A DNA stretch of 61,205 nucleotides from an uncultured Smithella sp. (GTDB taxonomy: Bacteria; Desulfobacterota; Syntrophia; Syntrophales; Smithellaceae). A program made the position numbers and the translations under genes. Below, one piece after another: positions 3,298 to 35,997 of this stretch; within the stretch, counting starts at the first letter, position 1, and every line of letters starts with the position of its first letter. The stretch covers positions 26,374 through 87,578 of the forward strand of contig CAYNWA010000011.1 of the NCBI GenBank assembly GCA_964400795.1. Direction: 5' to 3'. A model generated the notes under the pieces. That model worked only from the letters and a program-made list of their open reading frames with translations, did not search any database and was not told the origin of the DNA.

Positions 3298-6200
3298 TTG
3301 CAAAGCATCAGGCAAGATATTCGGCAAATCAGGCATAATCTTGATTCTGTCATGATTGCCGATTATTATCGTATATTCCGTCAGCTCAAAGGCCTCGAAG
3401 AGCATAAAATCAAGGATGGAAGATCCGCTTTAGGAACATTAAACCATCTGAAAAGAATAGCGGACCTTTCCGCCAACCGTTATCATAGCCGGAAGCAGAA
3501 TGTTCCCGCGGTAAGATTTTCACAAAACCTGCCGATCATTGCCAAAAAAAGAGAGATTGTTGAATGCATTCACAAGCATCAGGTCACGATCATTACCGGC
3601 GAGACCGGATCGGGAAAGACAACGCAGATTCCGAAGATGTGTCTTGCTGCCGGTCTAGGTCTGCGGGGCATGATCGGTCTGACCCAGCCCAGGCGGATTG
3701 CGGCTATCAGCATTGCCCAGCGCATTGCCTCGGAACTGGGCGAGGAGTGCGGCCAGTCGATCGCCTACAAAATCCGTTTTGAAGAAAAAAGCTCCTCCGA
3801 GCCTTTCATTAAAGTCATGACGGACGGCATTCTGCTAACGGAAACGGTCAAAGACAGGGACTTGCTGGCTTATGATACCATCATTGTCGATGAAGCCCAC
3901 GAACGCAGCCTGAATATTGATTTTATTCTGGGCTATCTGCGAACCCTGCTTGCCAGAAGAAAAGATTTGAAAGTTATCATTACGTCGGCAACCATCGATA
4001 CGGAAAAATTTTCCGAAGCGTTCAACAAGGCGCCGATCATCAAGGTTTCCGGCCGGATGTATCCGGTAGAGGTTCGTTACCGGCCGCTTGATCCAGAAAA
4101 AGAAGAAAAGGGCGAGACAACCTACATTGATGAAGCCGTGGTCTGCGTGGAACAGTTGCAGCGGGAACGGCGCTACGAAGATATTTTGATTTTCATGCCG
4201 ACCGAGCAGGACATCCGCGAAACCTGCGGACTGCTGGCTAAAAAATGTTCAGGTCTTGTTCTTCCTCTTTATGCACGATTATCCGGATCTCAGCAGAGAC
4301 TTATCTTCGCCGCCGCAGAAAAGCAGAAAATTATTGTGGCCACCAATATCGCCGAAACGTCGCTGACGATTCCCGGAATCAAATATGTGATTGACGCTGG
4401 ACTGGCGCGAATCCTGGAATACAATCCCCGCAGCCAGACGACCGGTCTGCCGATCAAACCGGTTTCCGCCAGCAGCGCCGAACAGCGAAAAGGACGCTGC
4501 GGCCGCGTGCAAAACGGCATCTGCATCCGGCTTTATTCGCAGGAGGAGTTTTTCCAAAAGCCTCTTTACACGCTGCCGGAAATTATGCGTTCCAATCTGG
4601 CTGGCGTCATTTTGCGGATGCTGGAGCTTAATCTTGGCGCAGTCACGTCCTTTCCGTTTATTGACAAGCCGCAACCCAAAAGTATGCGCGATGGTCTTGA
4701 TATCCTGCGCGATCTGGGAGCGCTGACCAAAGATGATCGTGCTGAAGAAACAAACCTTTATAAGCTGACGGATACCGGCTGGAAGATGGCGGCGTTTCCG
4801 CTTGATCCCCGGGCATCCCGAATGCTGATTGAAGCGCAGAAGGAAAACTGCGTCAACGAAATCGCCGTTATTGCCGCCGCCTTAAGCATTCAGGACCCGC
4901 GTGAACGTCCCTACGATAAAGCCGACGAGGCATCCAAAGCCCACGCGCAGTTCGCGCATCCGGAGTCGGACTTTTTAACCTATCTCAATATCTGGAACCG
5001 CTATCACGGATCACTGGAGAGCCTGCCGACGCAAAGCAAGCAAAGAAAATTCTGCCGCGATCATTTTCTTTCCTACAAGAGAATGATTGAATGGCGGGAC
5101 ATCTATCACCAGATCATGGACATTATCGACGGGAAGAACAAAACGGCAAAACAGAAGAAACATCACAAGATTGAAATTAATCAGGACATTTCCGACAGAA
5201 TTCACCGCTGTATTTTGAGCGGGTATCTTTCCAACATTGCCCGGAAGAAAGAGAAGAACTTTTACAACGCCGCCAAAAGCAGAGAGGTGATGATCTTTCC
5301 CGGCTCCGGCCTGTTCAATAAAGCAGGTCAATGGATCGTGGCCGGAGAAATCAGCCTCACCTCGCGGGTCTTCGCCCGCAATGTCGCCAATATCCAGAGC
5401 GATTGGCTGGAGAAACTGGGCGGTGAAAACTGTCGCTACACATATACCGCCGCTCACTGGGAAAAAAGCCGCGGGCAGGTGGTTGCTCTGGAGAAGGTAA
5501 CACTTTTCGGCTTAACGATCGTGGAAAGTCGCCCCGTTGCTTATGAAAGAATCACTCCGGAAGAAGCCAAATCCATATTCATCCGCGAAGCTCTTGTGCC
5601 CGGCGAAGTCGCCCGACGGATTCCTTTTCTCGAACACAATCTATCTTTATACGATAAAGTCAGAACCATGGAAGAAAAGCTGCGCCGGCGCGGCATTGTC
5701 GCCAACGAAGACACGATCGCCGACCTTTACGACCAACGGCTGCCGGTATTATCCGATATCCGGTCTCTGATGAATCTCATCCGGGAAAAAGGCAGCGATG
5801 AATTTCTGCGTTTTTGTGAAGAGGACTTAGTTGCCCATGAACCGGATGAAGAAGAAATGTCGCAGTATCCTGATCAGATAAAGTTGAAAGATGCGTCTTT
5901 GCGCTGTACCTATAATTTTGAGCCGGGCAAACGTGAGGATGGTGTAACGGTCAAGGTTCCGCTGGGACTGGTTTCCAGCGCGGCTAGGGAAAACATCGAC
6001 CGCTACCTGCCTTCCCTGCTGAAAGAAAAGGCCGTTCATTTATTAAAGACCCTGCCCAAATCATTGCGTCAGAGAATTCCATCGCCTGCCCAGGCCGCAC
6101 AGTTATTGCTGGGAGACAAATCCTATTTAAACAAACCTCTGCCACAGGCCTTGAGTGAATTGCTGCGCGATAAATACAAGATAACGGTTCCCCGCGATGC

Positions 6201-7371
6201 CTGGGCTGTGGAAAAACTGCCGGATTATCTGAATATCCGCTACAGTGTAATTGATGAAAAAGGAAAGGAGATTGGTAGCAGTCGGGACATTAGTCTTTTA
6301 CAAAAAGACCTTGCCGAAACGGTCAACACATCGGCTTTGGATAAAATCAGATGCGATTGGGAGAAGGAAGGAATCACCGGTTGGGATTTCGGTGAATTGC
6401 CGCAGCAGATTCCTCTTCAGGGAACGCACGGTTTGATCGGCTATGCCTATCCGGCACTTACTGTCAGCGATGATTCCATTGATCTGCGGCTTTTCACCGA
6501 CGAAAAACAAAGTGTCTTCCATCAGCTGCACGGTATTGCGGCGCTCTACGACATTCACTTCGCCGATAAAATGAAACAACTAAAAAAGAATGTCGCCCTG
6601 ACTGGCTCGATGAAGATCATCGCTGCCAGCATCGGCCCTCCCAAGCAACTGGAACAATCCATTATCAACCGGGTGAAGAAGGATTTGTTTTTCAAACCGT
6701 GGCGAAGACAGGAAGAGTTTATCGCGCATGCCGATTATCTAAATTCCAAAATTCTGCCTTACGGCCAACAGGTACTGACATCAATAGAACCCGTCTTGAA
6801 AGCCTTTGACGATACCTGCATCGTTATCAGCAAACTGATGACGAGAAATAAAGGCCATAATCCTGTTTTGAATTTTCTTAAAGAAACACGAGCAGAATTG
6901 CAAAGCCTTGTCCCCGTCGATTTTCCCGAACTCTACACCTTTGAACGGATGAAGGAAATCCCGCGTTACTGCAAGGCGCTTGCTCTACGGGCTGAACGGG
7001 GTAGCTTGAATCTTTCCGCCGCGCAAAGGAAAATGCAGGACGTTTTAATTTATTCGCAAAAACTGCAGCAGATGGTAAATGACCTTGTTCAGCCAAGTCT
7101 TTTTGACTTGGCTGGCGGTAAAAATATTCATTCGTGTCCAAAAGACTCGACTGAACCTATGGTAATCGTAAATGTTGGAATTAAGGAAATCACACAGTAT
7201 AAAGAGGACATATCAAGTGATTCTCCGGAAGAAAAGAATACATTGGTGGAAGAATTCTTTTGGATGATTGAAGAATACAAGGTCTCTCTGTTCGCCCAGG
7301 AACTCAAAACCCCCCACCCTGTTTCACCGAAAAAATTGAATCAGTTGATTGAAAAGATTGAAGACCTTTAG
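3298..7371 (+). CDS. hrpA: ATP-dependent RNA helicase HrpA
   Basis: GETGSGKTTQ, DEAH, SAT, QRKGRCGR and C-terminal WMIEEYKVSLFAQEL; 1357 aa. Confidence 0.95.
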   Translation: MQSIRQDIRQIRHNLDSVMIADYYRIFRQLKGLEEHKIKDGRSALGTLNHLKRIADLSANRYHSRKQNVPAVRFSQNLPIIAKKREIVECIHKHQVTIITGETGSGKTTQIPKMCLAAGLGLRGMIGLTQPRRIAAISIAQRIASELGEECGQSIAYKIRFEEKSSSEPFIKVMTDGILLTETVKDRDLLAYDTIIVDEAHERSLNIDFILGYLRTLLARRKDLKVIITSATIDTEKFSEAFNKAPIIKVSGRMYPVEVRYRPLDPEKEEKGETTYIDEAVVCVEQLQRERRYEDILIFMPTEQDIRETCGLLAKKCSGLVLPLYARLSGSQQRLIFAAAEKQKIIVATNIAETSLTIPGIKYVIDAGLARILEYNPRSQTTGLPIKPVSASSAEQRKGRCGRVQNGICIRLYSQEEFFQKPLYTLPEIMRSNLAGVILRMLELNLGAVTSFPFIDKPQPKSMRDGLDILRDLGALTKDDRAEETNLYKLTDTGWKMAAFPLDPRASRMLIEAQKENCVNEIAVIAAALSIQDPRERPYDKADEASKAHAQFAHPESDFLTYLNIWNRYHGSLESLPTQSKQRKFCRDHFLSYKRMIEWRDIYHQIMDIIDGKNKTAKQKKHHKIEINQDISDRIHRCILSGYLSNIARKKEKNFYNAAKSREVMIFPGSGLFNKAGQWIVAGEISLTSRVFARNVANIQSDWLEKLGGENCRYTYTAAHWEKSRGQVVALEKVTLFGLTIVESRPVAYERITPEEAKSIFIREALVPGEVARRIPFLEHNLSLYDKVRTMEEKLRRRGIVANEDTIADLYDQRLPVLSDIRSLMNLIREKGSDEFLRFCEEDLVAHEPDEEEMSQYPDQIKLKDASLRCTYNFEPGKREDGVTVKVPLGLVSSAARENIDRYLPSLLKEKAVHLLKTLPKSLRQRIPSPAQAAQLLLGDKSYLNKPLPQALSELLRDKYKITVPRDAWAVEKLPDYLNIRYSVIDEKGKEIGSSRDISLLQKDLAETVNTSALDKIRCDWEKEGITGWDFGELPQQIPLQGTHGLIGYAYPALTVSDDSIDLRLFTDEKQSVFHQLHGIAALYDIHFADKMKQLKKNVALTGSMKIIAASIGPPKQLEQSIINRVKKDLFFKPWRRQEEFIAHADYLNSKILPYGQQVLTSIEPVLKAFDDTCIVISKLMTRNKGHNPVLNFLKETRAELQSLVPVDFPELYTFERMKEIPRYCKALALRAERGSLNLSAAQRKMQDVLIYSQKLQQMVNDLVQPSLFDLAGGKNIHSCPKDSTEPMVIVNVGIKEITQYKEDISSDSPEEKNTLVEEFFWMIEEYKVSLFAQELKTPHPVSPKKLNQLIEKIEDL
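7087..7156. repeat. Palindromic repeat element inside the hrpA coding sequence
   Basis: CAGCCAAGTC-TTTTT-GACTTGGCTG perfect 10-bp hairpin (7090-7114). 7087-7103 and 7140-7156 form a 15/17 inverted repeat. Confidence 0.8.
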
Positions 7372-7390
7372 GACATATTCTTGTGTCGTT

Positions 7391-7443
7391 TTCAGTCAGG
7401 TTTTTTTGACCTCTCGTTCATCCAATTCTTTTTGACATGGCTG
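7391..7443. repeat. Two further copies of the same 28-bp palindrome family, between convergent hrpA and mnmA
   Basis: 7416-7443 matches 7087-7114 at 25/28. 7391-7410 is a partial copy matching at 17/20. Confidence 0.8.
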
Positions 7444-7468
7444 TCAGCAAGGGGAATATCCTTTAAGT

Positions 7469-8530
7469 TCACTCTAAATGCAAAATCTTATCTATTATTC
7501 CTCCACCGAGAACCCTATCGTGGTCATAAAACACCACGGATTGTCCGGGCGTGATCGCTTCCTGTTCTTCGGCAAATATTACTTTCAATTTTTCTTTCTC
7601 TGTCTTTACTTCGCAAAGCGCCTCTTTTTTCCGGTATCTGATTTTCGCGTGCATTTGCGCGGGCCAGGCTTCTACCAGTATATTGACGCCGGATGCGACA
7701 AGACCTTTACCCATCAAATCTTTCTTGTCTCCCACAACAATGCGATTCTTCACCGGATCAATAGATACAACATACAGAGGCGTGGGATGGCTGATGCCCA
7801 GGCCTCCCCGCTGGCCGATGGTGTGAAAAATAATCCCCCGATGTTGTCCCAGCACTTTTCCGTGAATATCCACAATCGGCCCTGGCTTTATATCCTGTAC
7901 CCGCTCCATAAGAAATTCCTGAGAATTCTTCTGCGTCACAAAACAAATATCCTGACTTTCTTCTTTCACCGCCACCGGCAGTGAGTATTTTTTTGCCAAT
8001 TCTCGCACTTCATCCTTTGTCAGATGCGCAAGGGGAAACAGTATGTTGCCAATCCTTGAATAAGGAATGGAATAAAGAAAATAGGTCTGGTCTTTCCTTT
8101 TGTCTCTGGGCCTTACCAGACAATAGCCGTCTTCACGTTTTTCAATCGCCGCGTAATGGCCGGTTGCCAGAAAATGAAATCCCATCGACAGCGCTTTATC
8201 CAGAAGAGAACCGAATTTCAGATGACGGTTGCAGCGGACGCAGGGATTGGGCGTTCTCCCTTTCCGATATTCGCTGATAAAATCGGTAATGACCTTGTCT
8301 TCAAGTTGACCGGCGTAATCAAAAACATCATGAGGAATCTTGAGATAACTGCAAACTTTTTTTGCGTCGTCAATCGCAGCGGATGTACAGGATCTTTTTC
8401 GGTCTCCTTCAGTCAGCGAGCCAAAATTCATCGTTACACCGGAGACATTGTAGCCCTCATTTTTAAGCAGCAATGCCGCAACGGAAGAATCAATCCCACC
8501 ACTCATCGCCACTAAAACTTTATTGCCCAT
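7469..8530 (-). CDS. mnmA: tRNA 2-thiouridine(34) synthase MnmA
   Basis: AMSGGIDS, NPCVRCN, KDQTYFL, ESQDICF, TIGQR and ITPGQSVVFY. Start moved to the ATG at 8530 (AGAGGA RBS). Confidence 0.95.
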   Translation of the reverse strand: MGNKVLVAMSGGIDSSVAALLLKNEGYNVSGVTMNFGSLTEGDRKRSCTSAAIDDAKKVCSYLKIPHDVFDYAGQLEDKVITDFISEYRKGRTPNPCVRCNRHLKFGSLLDKALSMGFHFLATGHYAAIEKREDGYCLVRPRDKRKDQTYFLYSIPYSRIGNILFPLAHLTKDEVRELAKKYSLPVAVKEESQDICFVTQKNSQEFLMERVQDIKPGPIVDIHGKVLGQHRGIIFHTIGQRGGLGISHPTPLYVVSIDPVKNRIVVGDKKDLMGKGLVASGVNILVEAWPAQMHAKIRYRKKEALCEVKTEKEKLKVIFAEEQEAITPGQSVVFYDHDRVLGGGIIDKILHLE

Positions 8531-14196: not shown

Positions 14197-15582
14197 ATGT
14201 TACCGGAATCCATATCGCAAACATTGACCAGACTGAGGGTTTTCTATGCCGATGGTAAAACAAGAGAGGTAGAGTTTCGTATTGCTCAGCTCAAAAAGCT
14301 CAAAGAGGGCATACGCAAATACGAACCAGAGATCATGGCTTCTCTTTATGACGATCTGCACAAGCCTCTTTTTGAATCCTACGCGAGTGAAATCGGCATT
14401 CTCTACACGGAAATCGATCATGTCATCCGCCATCTTCGATCATGGTCACGTACCCGGCGTGTGGCAACACCCATCATTCATTTTTTGTCCCGCAGCTATG
14501 TGTATCAGGAGCCTTACGGTGTTGTTTTGATCATCGGTCCCTGGAATTATCCTTTTCAGTTGGTCATCGCTCCGCTCATCGGAGCCATTGCCGCGGGCAA
14601 TTGCGTGCTTATCAAACCTTCAGAATTTTCTCCATCAACGTCGCAGATCATTGCCCAGATGATCGGCGAATTATTCAGTCCTGATTATGTAACGGTTTTT
14701 CAGGGAGAAGCCGAAGCAACGCAAAAACTTCTGGAAGAGAAATTCGATTATATCTTTTTTACAGGAAGTACAGCCGTCGGGCGGAGTATTATGACCGTTG
14801 CCGCACGTTATCTTACGCCGATAACGCTGGAGTTGGGGGGAAAGAGTCCTTGTATCGTGCACGAAGATGCCAGCCTTAAATACGGGATTAAAAGAATTAC
14901 CTGGGGAAAATTTTTCAACGCCGGTCAGACGTGTATTGCCCCGGATTATGTTTTGATTCATCGGAACATCAAGGATGAATTTGTCGAAAAGATGATCAAA
15001 ACGATTTTTTCATTTTACGGTGAAGATCCGATGAAAAGTCCGGACTATGCCAGGATTATCAATGAACGTCATTTCACCCGTCTGCTTTCGCTGATGAAAA
15101 GCGGGCGGATTCTGTCCGGAGGCAAATATCTCAGCAAAGATTTGTATATATCGCCTACTATCATTGATCAGATTTCTCCGGAAGAGCCCCTGATGCAGGA
15201 GGAAATCTTCGGTCCTCTTCTTCCTTTAGTTGAATATGACGACATTGACGAGGCCATTGCTTTTGTCAATCAACGGTCTCGGCCTTTGTCTCTTTATTGT
15301 TTTTCTGAAGACAAAGGAATTCAGGACAGGGTTCTGCGGGAAACGTCTTCCGGGGGCGGTTGTATCAACGATACGATATCCCATATCGGCAGCCAGGAAT
15401 TGCCTTTCGGTGGTATCGGGGATAGCGGCATGGGCGCTTATCACGGTAAGGCAAGTTTCGATACTTTCTCCCATCGGCGCGGTATTCTTTTCCGCTCGAA
15501 CCTGGTAGATATGCCCTTGCGTTATCCGCCATATCGTGACAGGATTTCGCTGCTGCAATTCATTTTCAGGTTTATCAGATAG
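14197..15582 (+). CDS. Aldehyde dehydrogenase (family 3-like)
   Basis: PWNYP, KPSE, FTGS, LELGGKSP, GQTCIAPDY (catalytic Cys), EEIFGP and LPFGGIG. Confidence 0.93.
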   Translation: MLPESISQTLTRLRVFYADGKTREVEFRIAQLKKLKEGIRKYEPEIMASLYDDLHKPLFESYASEIGILYTEIDHVIRHLRSWSRTRRVATPIIHFLSRSYVYQEPYGVVLIIGPWNYPFQLVIAPLIGAIAAGNCVLIKPSEFSPSTSQIIAQMIGELFSPDYVTVFQGEAEATQKLLEEKFDYIFFTGSTAVGRSIMTVAARYLTPITLELGGKSPCIVHEDASLKYGIKRITWGKFFNAGQTCIAPDYVLIHRNIKDEFVEKMIKTIFSFYGEDPMKSPDYARIINERHFTRLLSLMKSGRILSGGKYLSKDLYISPTIIDQISPEEPLMQEEIFGPLLPLVEYDDIDEAIAFVNQRSRPLSLYCFSEDKGIQDRVLRETSSGGGCINDTISHIGSQELPFGGIGDSGMGAYHGKASFDTFSHRRGILFRSNLVDMPLRYPPYRDRISLLQFIFRFIR

Positions 15583-15634: not shown

Positions 15635-16105
15635 ATGGCAGAAAAAACCATGATTAAATTAGGCAAGGCCGCGAAAAATTTTATTTTGCAGGATCAATTC
15701 GGTCAGAACCTCGTCTTTTCCAAAATGAAGGGTAGACGCGTCTTGTTGTCCTTTCATCCACTGGCCTGGACGCCGGTTTGTACGAAGCAGATGCAGTCGC
15801 TGGAGAAAAACAAAAAAGTATTCGACAACCTCAACACCATTGCCGTCGGCTTGAGCGTGGATAGTGTTCCCTCCAAGGCGGCCTGGGCCAAAGCGATCAA
15901 GATAAAAAATACTAGGCTGCTGGCTGATTTCTGGCCGCACGGCGGTGTGGCGAAAAGCCTGGGATTTTTCAGGGACAAGGACGGTATCTCACAACGGGCA
16001 AACGTTATTCTCAACGAGAAGGGAAAGGTTTGTTTTGTGAAGGTTTACCTTCTCACCGAACTGCCGGATATTAAAGAAATAATTTCTTTTCTGAAAAATT
16101 CATAA
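15635..16105 (+). CDS. Peroxiredoxin / AhpC-TSA redoxin (AhpE-like)
   Basis: FHPLAWTPVC (PxxxTxxC), LLADFWPHG and RANVI. Confidence 0.85.
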   Translation: MAEKTMIKLGKAAKNFILQDQFGQNLVFSKMKGRRVLLSFHPLAWTPVCTKQMQSLEKNKKVFDNLNTIAVGLSVDSVPSKAAWAKAIKIKNTRLLADFWPHGGVAKSLGFFRDKDGISQRANVILNEKGKVCFVKVYLLTELPDIKEIISFLKNS

Positions 16106-35969: not shown

Positions 35970-35997
35970 GTTCAGCTAAGTCTTTTGAACTTTGCTG
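35970..35997. repeat. Copy of the 28-bp GTTCAGCCAAGTC palindrome family
   Basis: Matches 7087-7114 at 24/28. Confidence 0.7.

Follow-up and report, generated by a model that had tools for sequence, protein, structure and literature searches.

Repetitive extragenic palindromes (REPs), together with the REPINs and the REP-associated tyrosine transposases (RAYTs), are the subject of work reportedly published by Nunvar in 2010, by Bertels and Rainey in 2011 and by Ton-Hoang in 2012. REPs located inside coding regions have been reported in several species (Di Nocera, De Gregorio & Rocco, 2013, BMC Genomics 14:522, PMC3733652), where intragenic REP dimers add 20–30 amino acids to the encoded proteins, many of which are enzymes acting on nucleic acids, RNA helicases and repair enzymes among them. 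In some of these cases only one gene is hit per genome, and RAYT genes flanked by the same repeats are termed 'REPtrons' (PMC3733652). Rickettsia palindromic elements (RPEs; Ogata et al., 2000, as summarised in PMC3733652) are palindromic repeats translated within conserved proteins; the inserts of RPE-1, the first to be described, are longer palindromes, and the RPE families, a large share of whose copies are intragenic, are confined to Rickettsia (PMC3733652). In this study, a DNA stretch of 61,205 nucleotides from an uncultured Smithella sp. (the window) was analyzed, in which hrpA, the gene of a ribosome-rescue helicase, contains, at 7087–7161, an in-frame pair of inverted hairpins. It is concluded that a RAYT-type REP doublet very probably joined the hrpA coding sequence in the ancestor of some Smithella lineages and is kept there as a translated, tolerated passenger.

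The genome to which the window belongs (G000) is a Smithella metagenome-assembled genome (MAG) of 3.25 Mb (56 contigs, 43.8% G+C), and hrpA is present in it as a single copy (one match). According to the list of open reading frames (ORFs) and their translation, the gene is an unbroken forward-strand ORF of 1357 codons (3298–7371) encoding a DEAH/RHA helicase of 1357 amino acids. The HrpA domain set is complete in Pfam (DEAD, Helicase_C, HA2_N/HA2_C, OB_NTP_bind and DUF3418), and the helicase core, HA2, OB, DUF3418 and the Hook-domain fold, as recognized by Pfam, PDB sequence and Foldseek comparisons, identify the product as HrpA. The DUF3418 match (8e-142) is broken in two by the insert, its first stretch stopping at residue 1262. 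Between QQMVNDL and SSDSPEEK lies the segment VQPSLFDLAGGKNIHSCPKDSTEPMVIVNVGIKEITQYKEDI, which a preliminary description of this DNA had treated as a palindromic insertion of about 42 extra codons. The figure is close to the difference from Escherichia coli HrpA, in which 8 residues (1252–1259) correspond to residues 1264–1315 here, giving 44 extra (PDB 9GGR/9GFT match, 3e-60). As the length of the repeat it was too large, the repeat covering 25 codons (7087–7161) and the remainder being a linker characteristic of the genus.

The repeat itself is a REPIN-like REP doublet of 75 nt on the forward strand, read as the 25 codons V1264–M1288 (VQPSLFDLAGGKNIHSCPKDSTEPM). Its limits, GTTCAG on the left and GAAC followed by a YTAWG tail on the right, were obtained from an alignment of the 12 doublets of G000 and are also given by BLAST matches to query positions 5–80. 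The left unit (type A, 7087–7114, forward strand) carries the GTTC tag and the perfect 10-bp stem (7090–7099/7105–7114) that had been noticed at the outset, closed by a 5-nt TTTTT loop, and shows no difference from the family consensus. It is followed by a spacer (7115–7130), the length and sequence of which differ from copy to copy, and then by the right unit (type B, inverted, 7131–7156), which reads TTCGTGTC CAAAA GACTCGAC TGAAC and is slightly decayed, with two stem-weakening differences from the family consensus GTCGAGTC CAAAA GACTCGAC YGAAC. The conserved 3' tail (7157–7161) is CTATG here and YTAWG in the consensus across the family. The terminal inverted repeat of the preliminary description was found as 21 nt (7087–7107/7136–7156) at 86% complementarity. 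The 75 nt folded considerably more stably than shuffled sequences (z = -6.9 for DNA and -5.3 for RNA), and none of 200 shuffles equalled them. No Rfam family was matched over 6900–7600 at E <= 1.

A genome-wide repeat search found no second copy in G000 of the sequence from 7162 onward, and 7162–7212 on the forward strand (VIVNVGIKEITQYKEDI) is Smithella linker, not repeat DNA, aligning with ..IGIxEIxxFKED.. of every genus orthologue compared; its first 9–12 nt (MVI/MAI codons) are common only to one other carrier, L043. The tryptic peptides predicted from the doublet region are LQQMVNDLVQPSLFDLAGGK and DSTEPMVIVNVGIK. A 7-nt direct repeat, ATGGTAA, at 7072–7078 and 7159–7165 brackets the hrpA doublet in G000 and gives MVN...MVIVN in the protein; it is decayed in L043 and absent as a feature of the family, and it may be a local duplication.

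The doublet is one member of a dispersed family. The 28-mer GTTCAGCCAAGTCTTTTTGACTTGGCTG occurs at 10 exact sites in G000, or at about 20 with at most 4 mismatches, and a second related hairpin, GGTCGAGTC-CAAAA-GACTCGACC-GAAC, usually comes after type A in the inverted orientation beyond a variable spacer. Altogether, the family occupies 25 loci in G000, 12 of them doublets of 64–86 nt that all combine A with an inverted B, whereas a control with the reversed pattern gave 0 matches in all 31 genus genomes. The loci lie outside long ORFs in 24 of 25 cases, as befits a short palindrome at many, mostly extragenic, sites. The tag conserved in all copies is GTTC (GAAC in the inverted unit) rather than the GTAG or CGTC by which REPs are recognized. 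Copies between genes of the window had also been described beforehand, and they proved to be two degenerate solo left hairpins of type A on the forward strand, at 7416–7443 (3 mismatches) and 35970–35997 (4 mismatches); the chance expectation in the window for the 28-mer with at most 3 mismatches is 0. The former begins 45 nt past the hrpA stop and occupies the 97-nt gap between the convergent genes hrpA and mnmA, where L042 has an intact doublet at the equivalent place, while the latter is situated between two minus-strand ORFs.

A genome-wide search for other coding insertions, suggested at the same time, returned the approximately 25 loci of the same repeat and no further copy in a long ORF. 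Among the 25 loci, hrpA is the sole long ORF of G000 with a family copy, the remaining spanning frames having at most 144 codons; no family searches were run on borderline spanning frames of 100–177 amino acids in G000 and its relatives. For five relatives, 33 hairpin-A matches were listed and the DNA was inspected for 30, and copies in long ORFs were found only in hrpA. One relative has a copy at the extreme start of a 467-codon frame, where it probably lies upstream of the true start codon.

An enzyme of the expected kind is encoded in the same genome. A Pfam Y1_Tnp search of G000 gave three matches, one of which is a RAYT gene (C34:15430–15969), a 179-amino-acid ORF scoring 91.7 bits with NCBIfam NF047646 (cut-off 80), the protein of which contains the HUH motif (NHLHLII) and the tyrosine motif (YIHENPVRAG). 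Two type-B hairpins flank the gene on either side (15333–15357 and 15373–15402; 15976–16002 and 16017–16043) with their tags pointing outward, which is the classic REP–RAYT arrangement. The protein would be the enzyme that binds and cleaves the REPs as single-stranded DNA and by which they were mobilized; since a close RAYT was seen only in G000, these flanks are what ties enzyme to repeat. No PDB sequence matched the RAYT at E <= 0.01. Its contig (C34, 1–26753) has six REP loci within 26.7 kb (2544, 2856, 4844, 15373, 15976 and 16017), including the variant stems GGTCAAGTC and GGCCGAGTC. The two other Y1_Tnp (IS200-like) matches, C31:379–711 (67.8 bits) and C51:4328–4618 (37.1 bits), are without flanking copies of the hrpA-type family.

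Comparison of HrpA across 18 genus members and 12 further families in the order separates the linker from the repeat. The nearest public hrpA loci all belong to Smithella MAGs. In the other families and in E. coli there is a near-direct step from a helix ending ...L to a helix beginning EEK...WMIEEYKVSLFAQEL, whereas all Smithella HrpA sequences have in between a variable linker, about 15 residues long, and after it ..GIxEIxxFKED... A gap in orthologues had been anticipated, and 13 of the 18 genus orthologues have one exactly at the doublet, with neither palindrome nor peptide. The preliminary description had held that relatives lacking the palindrome and nevertheless sharing the peptide would speak against an insertion; such relatives were looked at and are without the peptide, so that its reading survived. 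The carriers are five MAGs from different projects, namely G000, G014 (= L020/L044), G009 (= L037/L042), L043 and L052, with linkers of 32–36 residues compared with 15 in non-carriers. Across the 31 genus genomes, the REP family has 11–39 matches in six (G000, G009, G013, G014, G024 and G041) and none in fourteen, and all three hrpA carriers in this sample are REP-rich.

The site can be placed on a structural model. An AlphaFold2 model of HrpA residues 1035–1357, built with a 37-sequence alignment, has a mean predicted local distance difference test (pLDDT) score of 90.4 and a predicted template-modelling (pTM) score of 0.84. The pLDDT falls below 50 only in model residues 232–251, inside the repeat-coded residues 230–254, with a long helix (205–230) before the insert and a short linker helix (261–269) after it. 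In Foldseek, the model matches best the E. coli HrpA of the collided-disome complexes 9GGR and 9GFT (TM 0.67–0.74), and the insert falls between residues 1251 and 1260 of the E. coli protein. In E. coli HrpA, the Hook domain spans 1078–1300, its C-terminal three-helix element touches helix h39 of the 16S rRNA of the collided ribosome, and ribosome splitting is lost when the last 121 residues are removed (bioRxiv 10.1101/2024.09.11.612461). In the model the insert thus forms part of a surface loop, as the preliminary description had expected; this loop, disordered and already lengthened in the genus, is predicted to lie within a functionally important element of the Hook. In the five carriers, 19 of 72 aligned sites are variable, with 7, 3 and 9 of them at the first, second and third codon positions (24 sites each); these counts are few, and no clear third-position excess that would indicate selection on the peptide was seen. 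All substitutions in carrier stems break pairs and none is compensated, and the peptide changes include P/S, L/F, A/P and GG/VV. Since the stems decay without compensation and the peptide positions change freely, the doublet fits a tolerated passenger, its neutrality being judged from a small sample of five carriers.

The findings agree with the following course of events. In an ancestor, a RAYT would have inserted two inverted hairpin units of 26–28 nt, tagged GTTC/GAAC, into the already long and variable loop between the last helices of the Hook domain. Because the length is divisible by three (72–75 nt) and a stop codon is absent in frame, the insertion would have been translated as about 25 disordered residues and have left the protein whole, and the hairpins and the peptide would have persisted without signs of selection. 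The allele may then have spread among Smithella species through homologous recombination, repeated loss being the alternative explanation of its patchy distribution.

Several results weigh against this account. The net gain in carriers is 17–21 codons instead of 24–25, which implies that some of the original linker was lost or has diverged. The carriers are scattered and not monophyletic in a tree of the C-terminal half of HrpA, where L009 pairs with the non-carrier L045 and L037 with the non-carrier L021 (support 100 each); a single carrier clade is rejected by this tree. A close RAYT was found in G000 alone among the 31 genus genomes, and the REP-rich carriers G009 and G014 have no close RAYT at E <= 1e-10. 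Furthermore, the GTTC tag differs from those of the described REP superfamilies (GTAG or CGTC), and the Smithella copies number tens rather than hundreds.

Two of these points can be followed somewhat further. Sliding-window identity showed L045 to be closest to the G000 hrpA over most of the compared region (84–93%), L037 across the element and the preceding 120 nt (90–95%) and L043 immediately past the element (88–94%), and along 5800–7371 of the window the nearest relative is in turn L045, L037/L021, L045 again, L037 and finally L043. This mosaic suggests either recombination between species or chimeric MAG contigs. As to the enzyme, the REP-rich genomes G009, G013, G014, G024 and G041 are all without a close homologue of the G000 RAYT, and no correlation was found across the genus between REP abundance and RAYT presence; either the repeats persist after the enzyme is gone or its gene was missed in fragmented MAGs.

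Other explanations were weighed against the same data. The whole segment of about 44 residues, genus linker included, might derive from one ancient REP insertion in the ancestor of the genus, which has decayed or been partly deleted in the non-carriers and been retained by the carriers. This would account for the absence of the entire linker from E. coli and the other families of the order, for the D-S pair that recurs in many non-carrier linkers and for the similarity between ..TKDSTLPQ.. of the non-carrier L021 and ..PKDST(E/D)P.. of the carriers, a stretch that hairpin B encodes in its loop and right arm. However, the linker DNA of 15 non-carriers was no closer to the doublet than shuffled sequence (500 shuffles each, p = 0.08–0.97), leaving a decayed REP in the genus linker unsupported, and a perfect 10-bp stem would hardly outlast, unselected, the divergence of a genus that elsewhere reaches 20–25% in protein. 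Such an ancient origin is unlikely. It is also conceivable that the doublet was co-opted, its mRNA hairpins (-27.5 kcal/mol) tuning the translation or stability of hrpA, or the longer loop altering how the Hook senses collided ribosomes. The position of the site within the last 121 HrpA residues, the left stem that is perfect still in G000 and G009 and the recurrence of repeat inserts in the same loop of other species would suit such a role, but they are set against uncompensated stem changes, a freely variable peptide predicted to be disordered and insert-free sister sequences that look intact, which makes co-option distinctly improbable.

The proposal that a REP or MITE (miniature inverted-repeat transposable element) had been absorbed into an intact helicase holds as far as a REP doublet in a whole HrpA is concerned. 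An origin as a MITE derived from a DDE-type insertion sequence, with a target-site duplication, would match the ends GTTCAG...CTGAAC and the ATGGTAA word flanking the hrpA copy of G000. Nevertheless, 11 of the 12 G000 doublets have no shared flanking word longer than 4 nt, and about 2.4% of controls share a 7-nt word by chance. Furthermore, the apparent inverted repeats are two hairpin units that are also found singly, and the only associated gene is a RAYT. No target-site duplication is expected from IS200/IS605-type chemistry. A MITE origin is accordingly very improbable. Finally, the repeat could have been spliced into hrpA during assembly or binning, a concern raised by the 56 contigs of this MAG, but the same element occurs at the same codon in MAGs of five projects with the frame kept throughout; because these are five independent assemblies, each with its own lineage-specific substitutions, an artefact is ruled out for practical purposes. 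The doublet thus remains best explained as a REP insertion carried as a passenger.

At least two other repeat families are found in frame in HrpA of other Smithella species, at the Hook loop and one or two other sites, and the protein does seem prone to repeat insertion in this genus. After residue 243, L019 (G019) and L028 (G020) have in-frame GC-rich palindromic inserts of 36–37 codons belonging to a dispersed family with at least 40 matches in G006. An in-frame GC-rich palindromic insert of 36–37 codons follows residue 618 in L028 (G020), and a shorter related stretch is present in L012 (G006). The same Hook loop contains in L018, L036, L050 and L052, including G003 and G007, a different GC-rich element, CTCCCCTCCCTTGAGGGGAGGGG..., coding in frame for ..LEGRGRGRVD..; this element is dispersed as well (G003 has about 20 matches, G007 has 17), and in L052 it adjoins the REP doublet. 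The Hook loop accordingly tolerates 25–60 extra disordered residues. In L042:1273–2200 (Smithella sp. Go_SlDig_bin_11, = G009 C54:36707–37314), the last 290 nt of hrpA are copied in tandem at 99.7% identity; the copy starts exactly at the intragenic doublet, and a third doublet with an identical spacer comes next. It looks like the product of unequal recombination between the intragenic doublet and the intergenic one just past the stop. A more speculative proposal, which we consider rather unlikely, is that the last Hook loop, possibly with one or two other sites, repeatedly receives and exchanges palindromic repeats of several unrelated families, and that the doublets in the loop and past the stop bracket the final helices as a cassette that is duplicated, as in the 290-nt tandem copy, and swapped between species by REP-to-REP recombination. 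If so, cassette exchange would diversify the part of HrpA that senses collided ribosomes in E. coli. The recurrent inserts are otherwise only moderately interesting unless they are shown to have an effect. For annotation, the hairpins and the odd peptide in hrpA should not be taken for a frameshift or a pseudogene.

Among the known systems, the hrpA doublet is an already well known type of event, the intragenic REP (PMC3733652), and no paper was found in which Smithella and repetitive extragenic palindromes are both mentioned. As with the described intragenic REPs, the Smithella repeats are mostly intergenic, form inverted dimers, are read through in frame and flank a RAYT gene; the differences, in addition to tag and copy number, are the host (Syntrophales), the protein (HrpA) and the defined Hook loop. 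The two inverted units with a short spacer, the single-copy HUH-Y1 gene flanked by units and the lack of target duplications agree with REPIN/RAYT systems, whereas recent activity is not evident in Smithella, where a close RAYT is found in one of 31 genomes although at least six are REP-rich. A MITE would have terminal repeats with target-site duplications, which 11 of 12 copies are without. The likeness to RPEs drawn in the preliminary description stands by analogy only: the Smithella repeat is also in frame in a conserved, apparently functional protein at a surface-exposed position, but in contrast to RPEs, which hit many genes, this family has one of 25 loci in a long gene, hrpA, and has a RAYT partner. 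What the locus contributes is a clean, well bounded translated REP doublet from a syntrophic Smithella, with a GTTC tag outside the two described superfamilies and an insertion site that can be placed on a solved structure, in the loop of the element that contacts the collided ribosome in E. coli HrpA.

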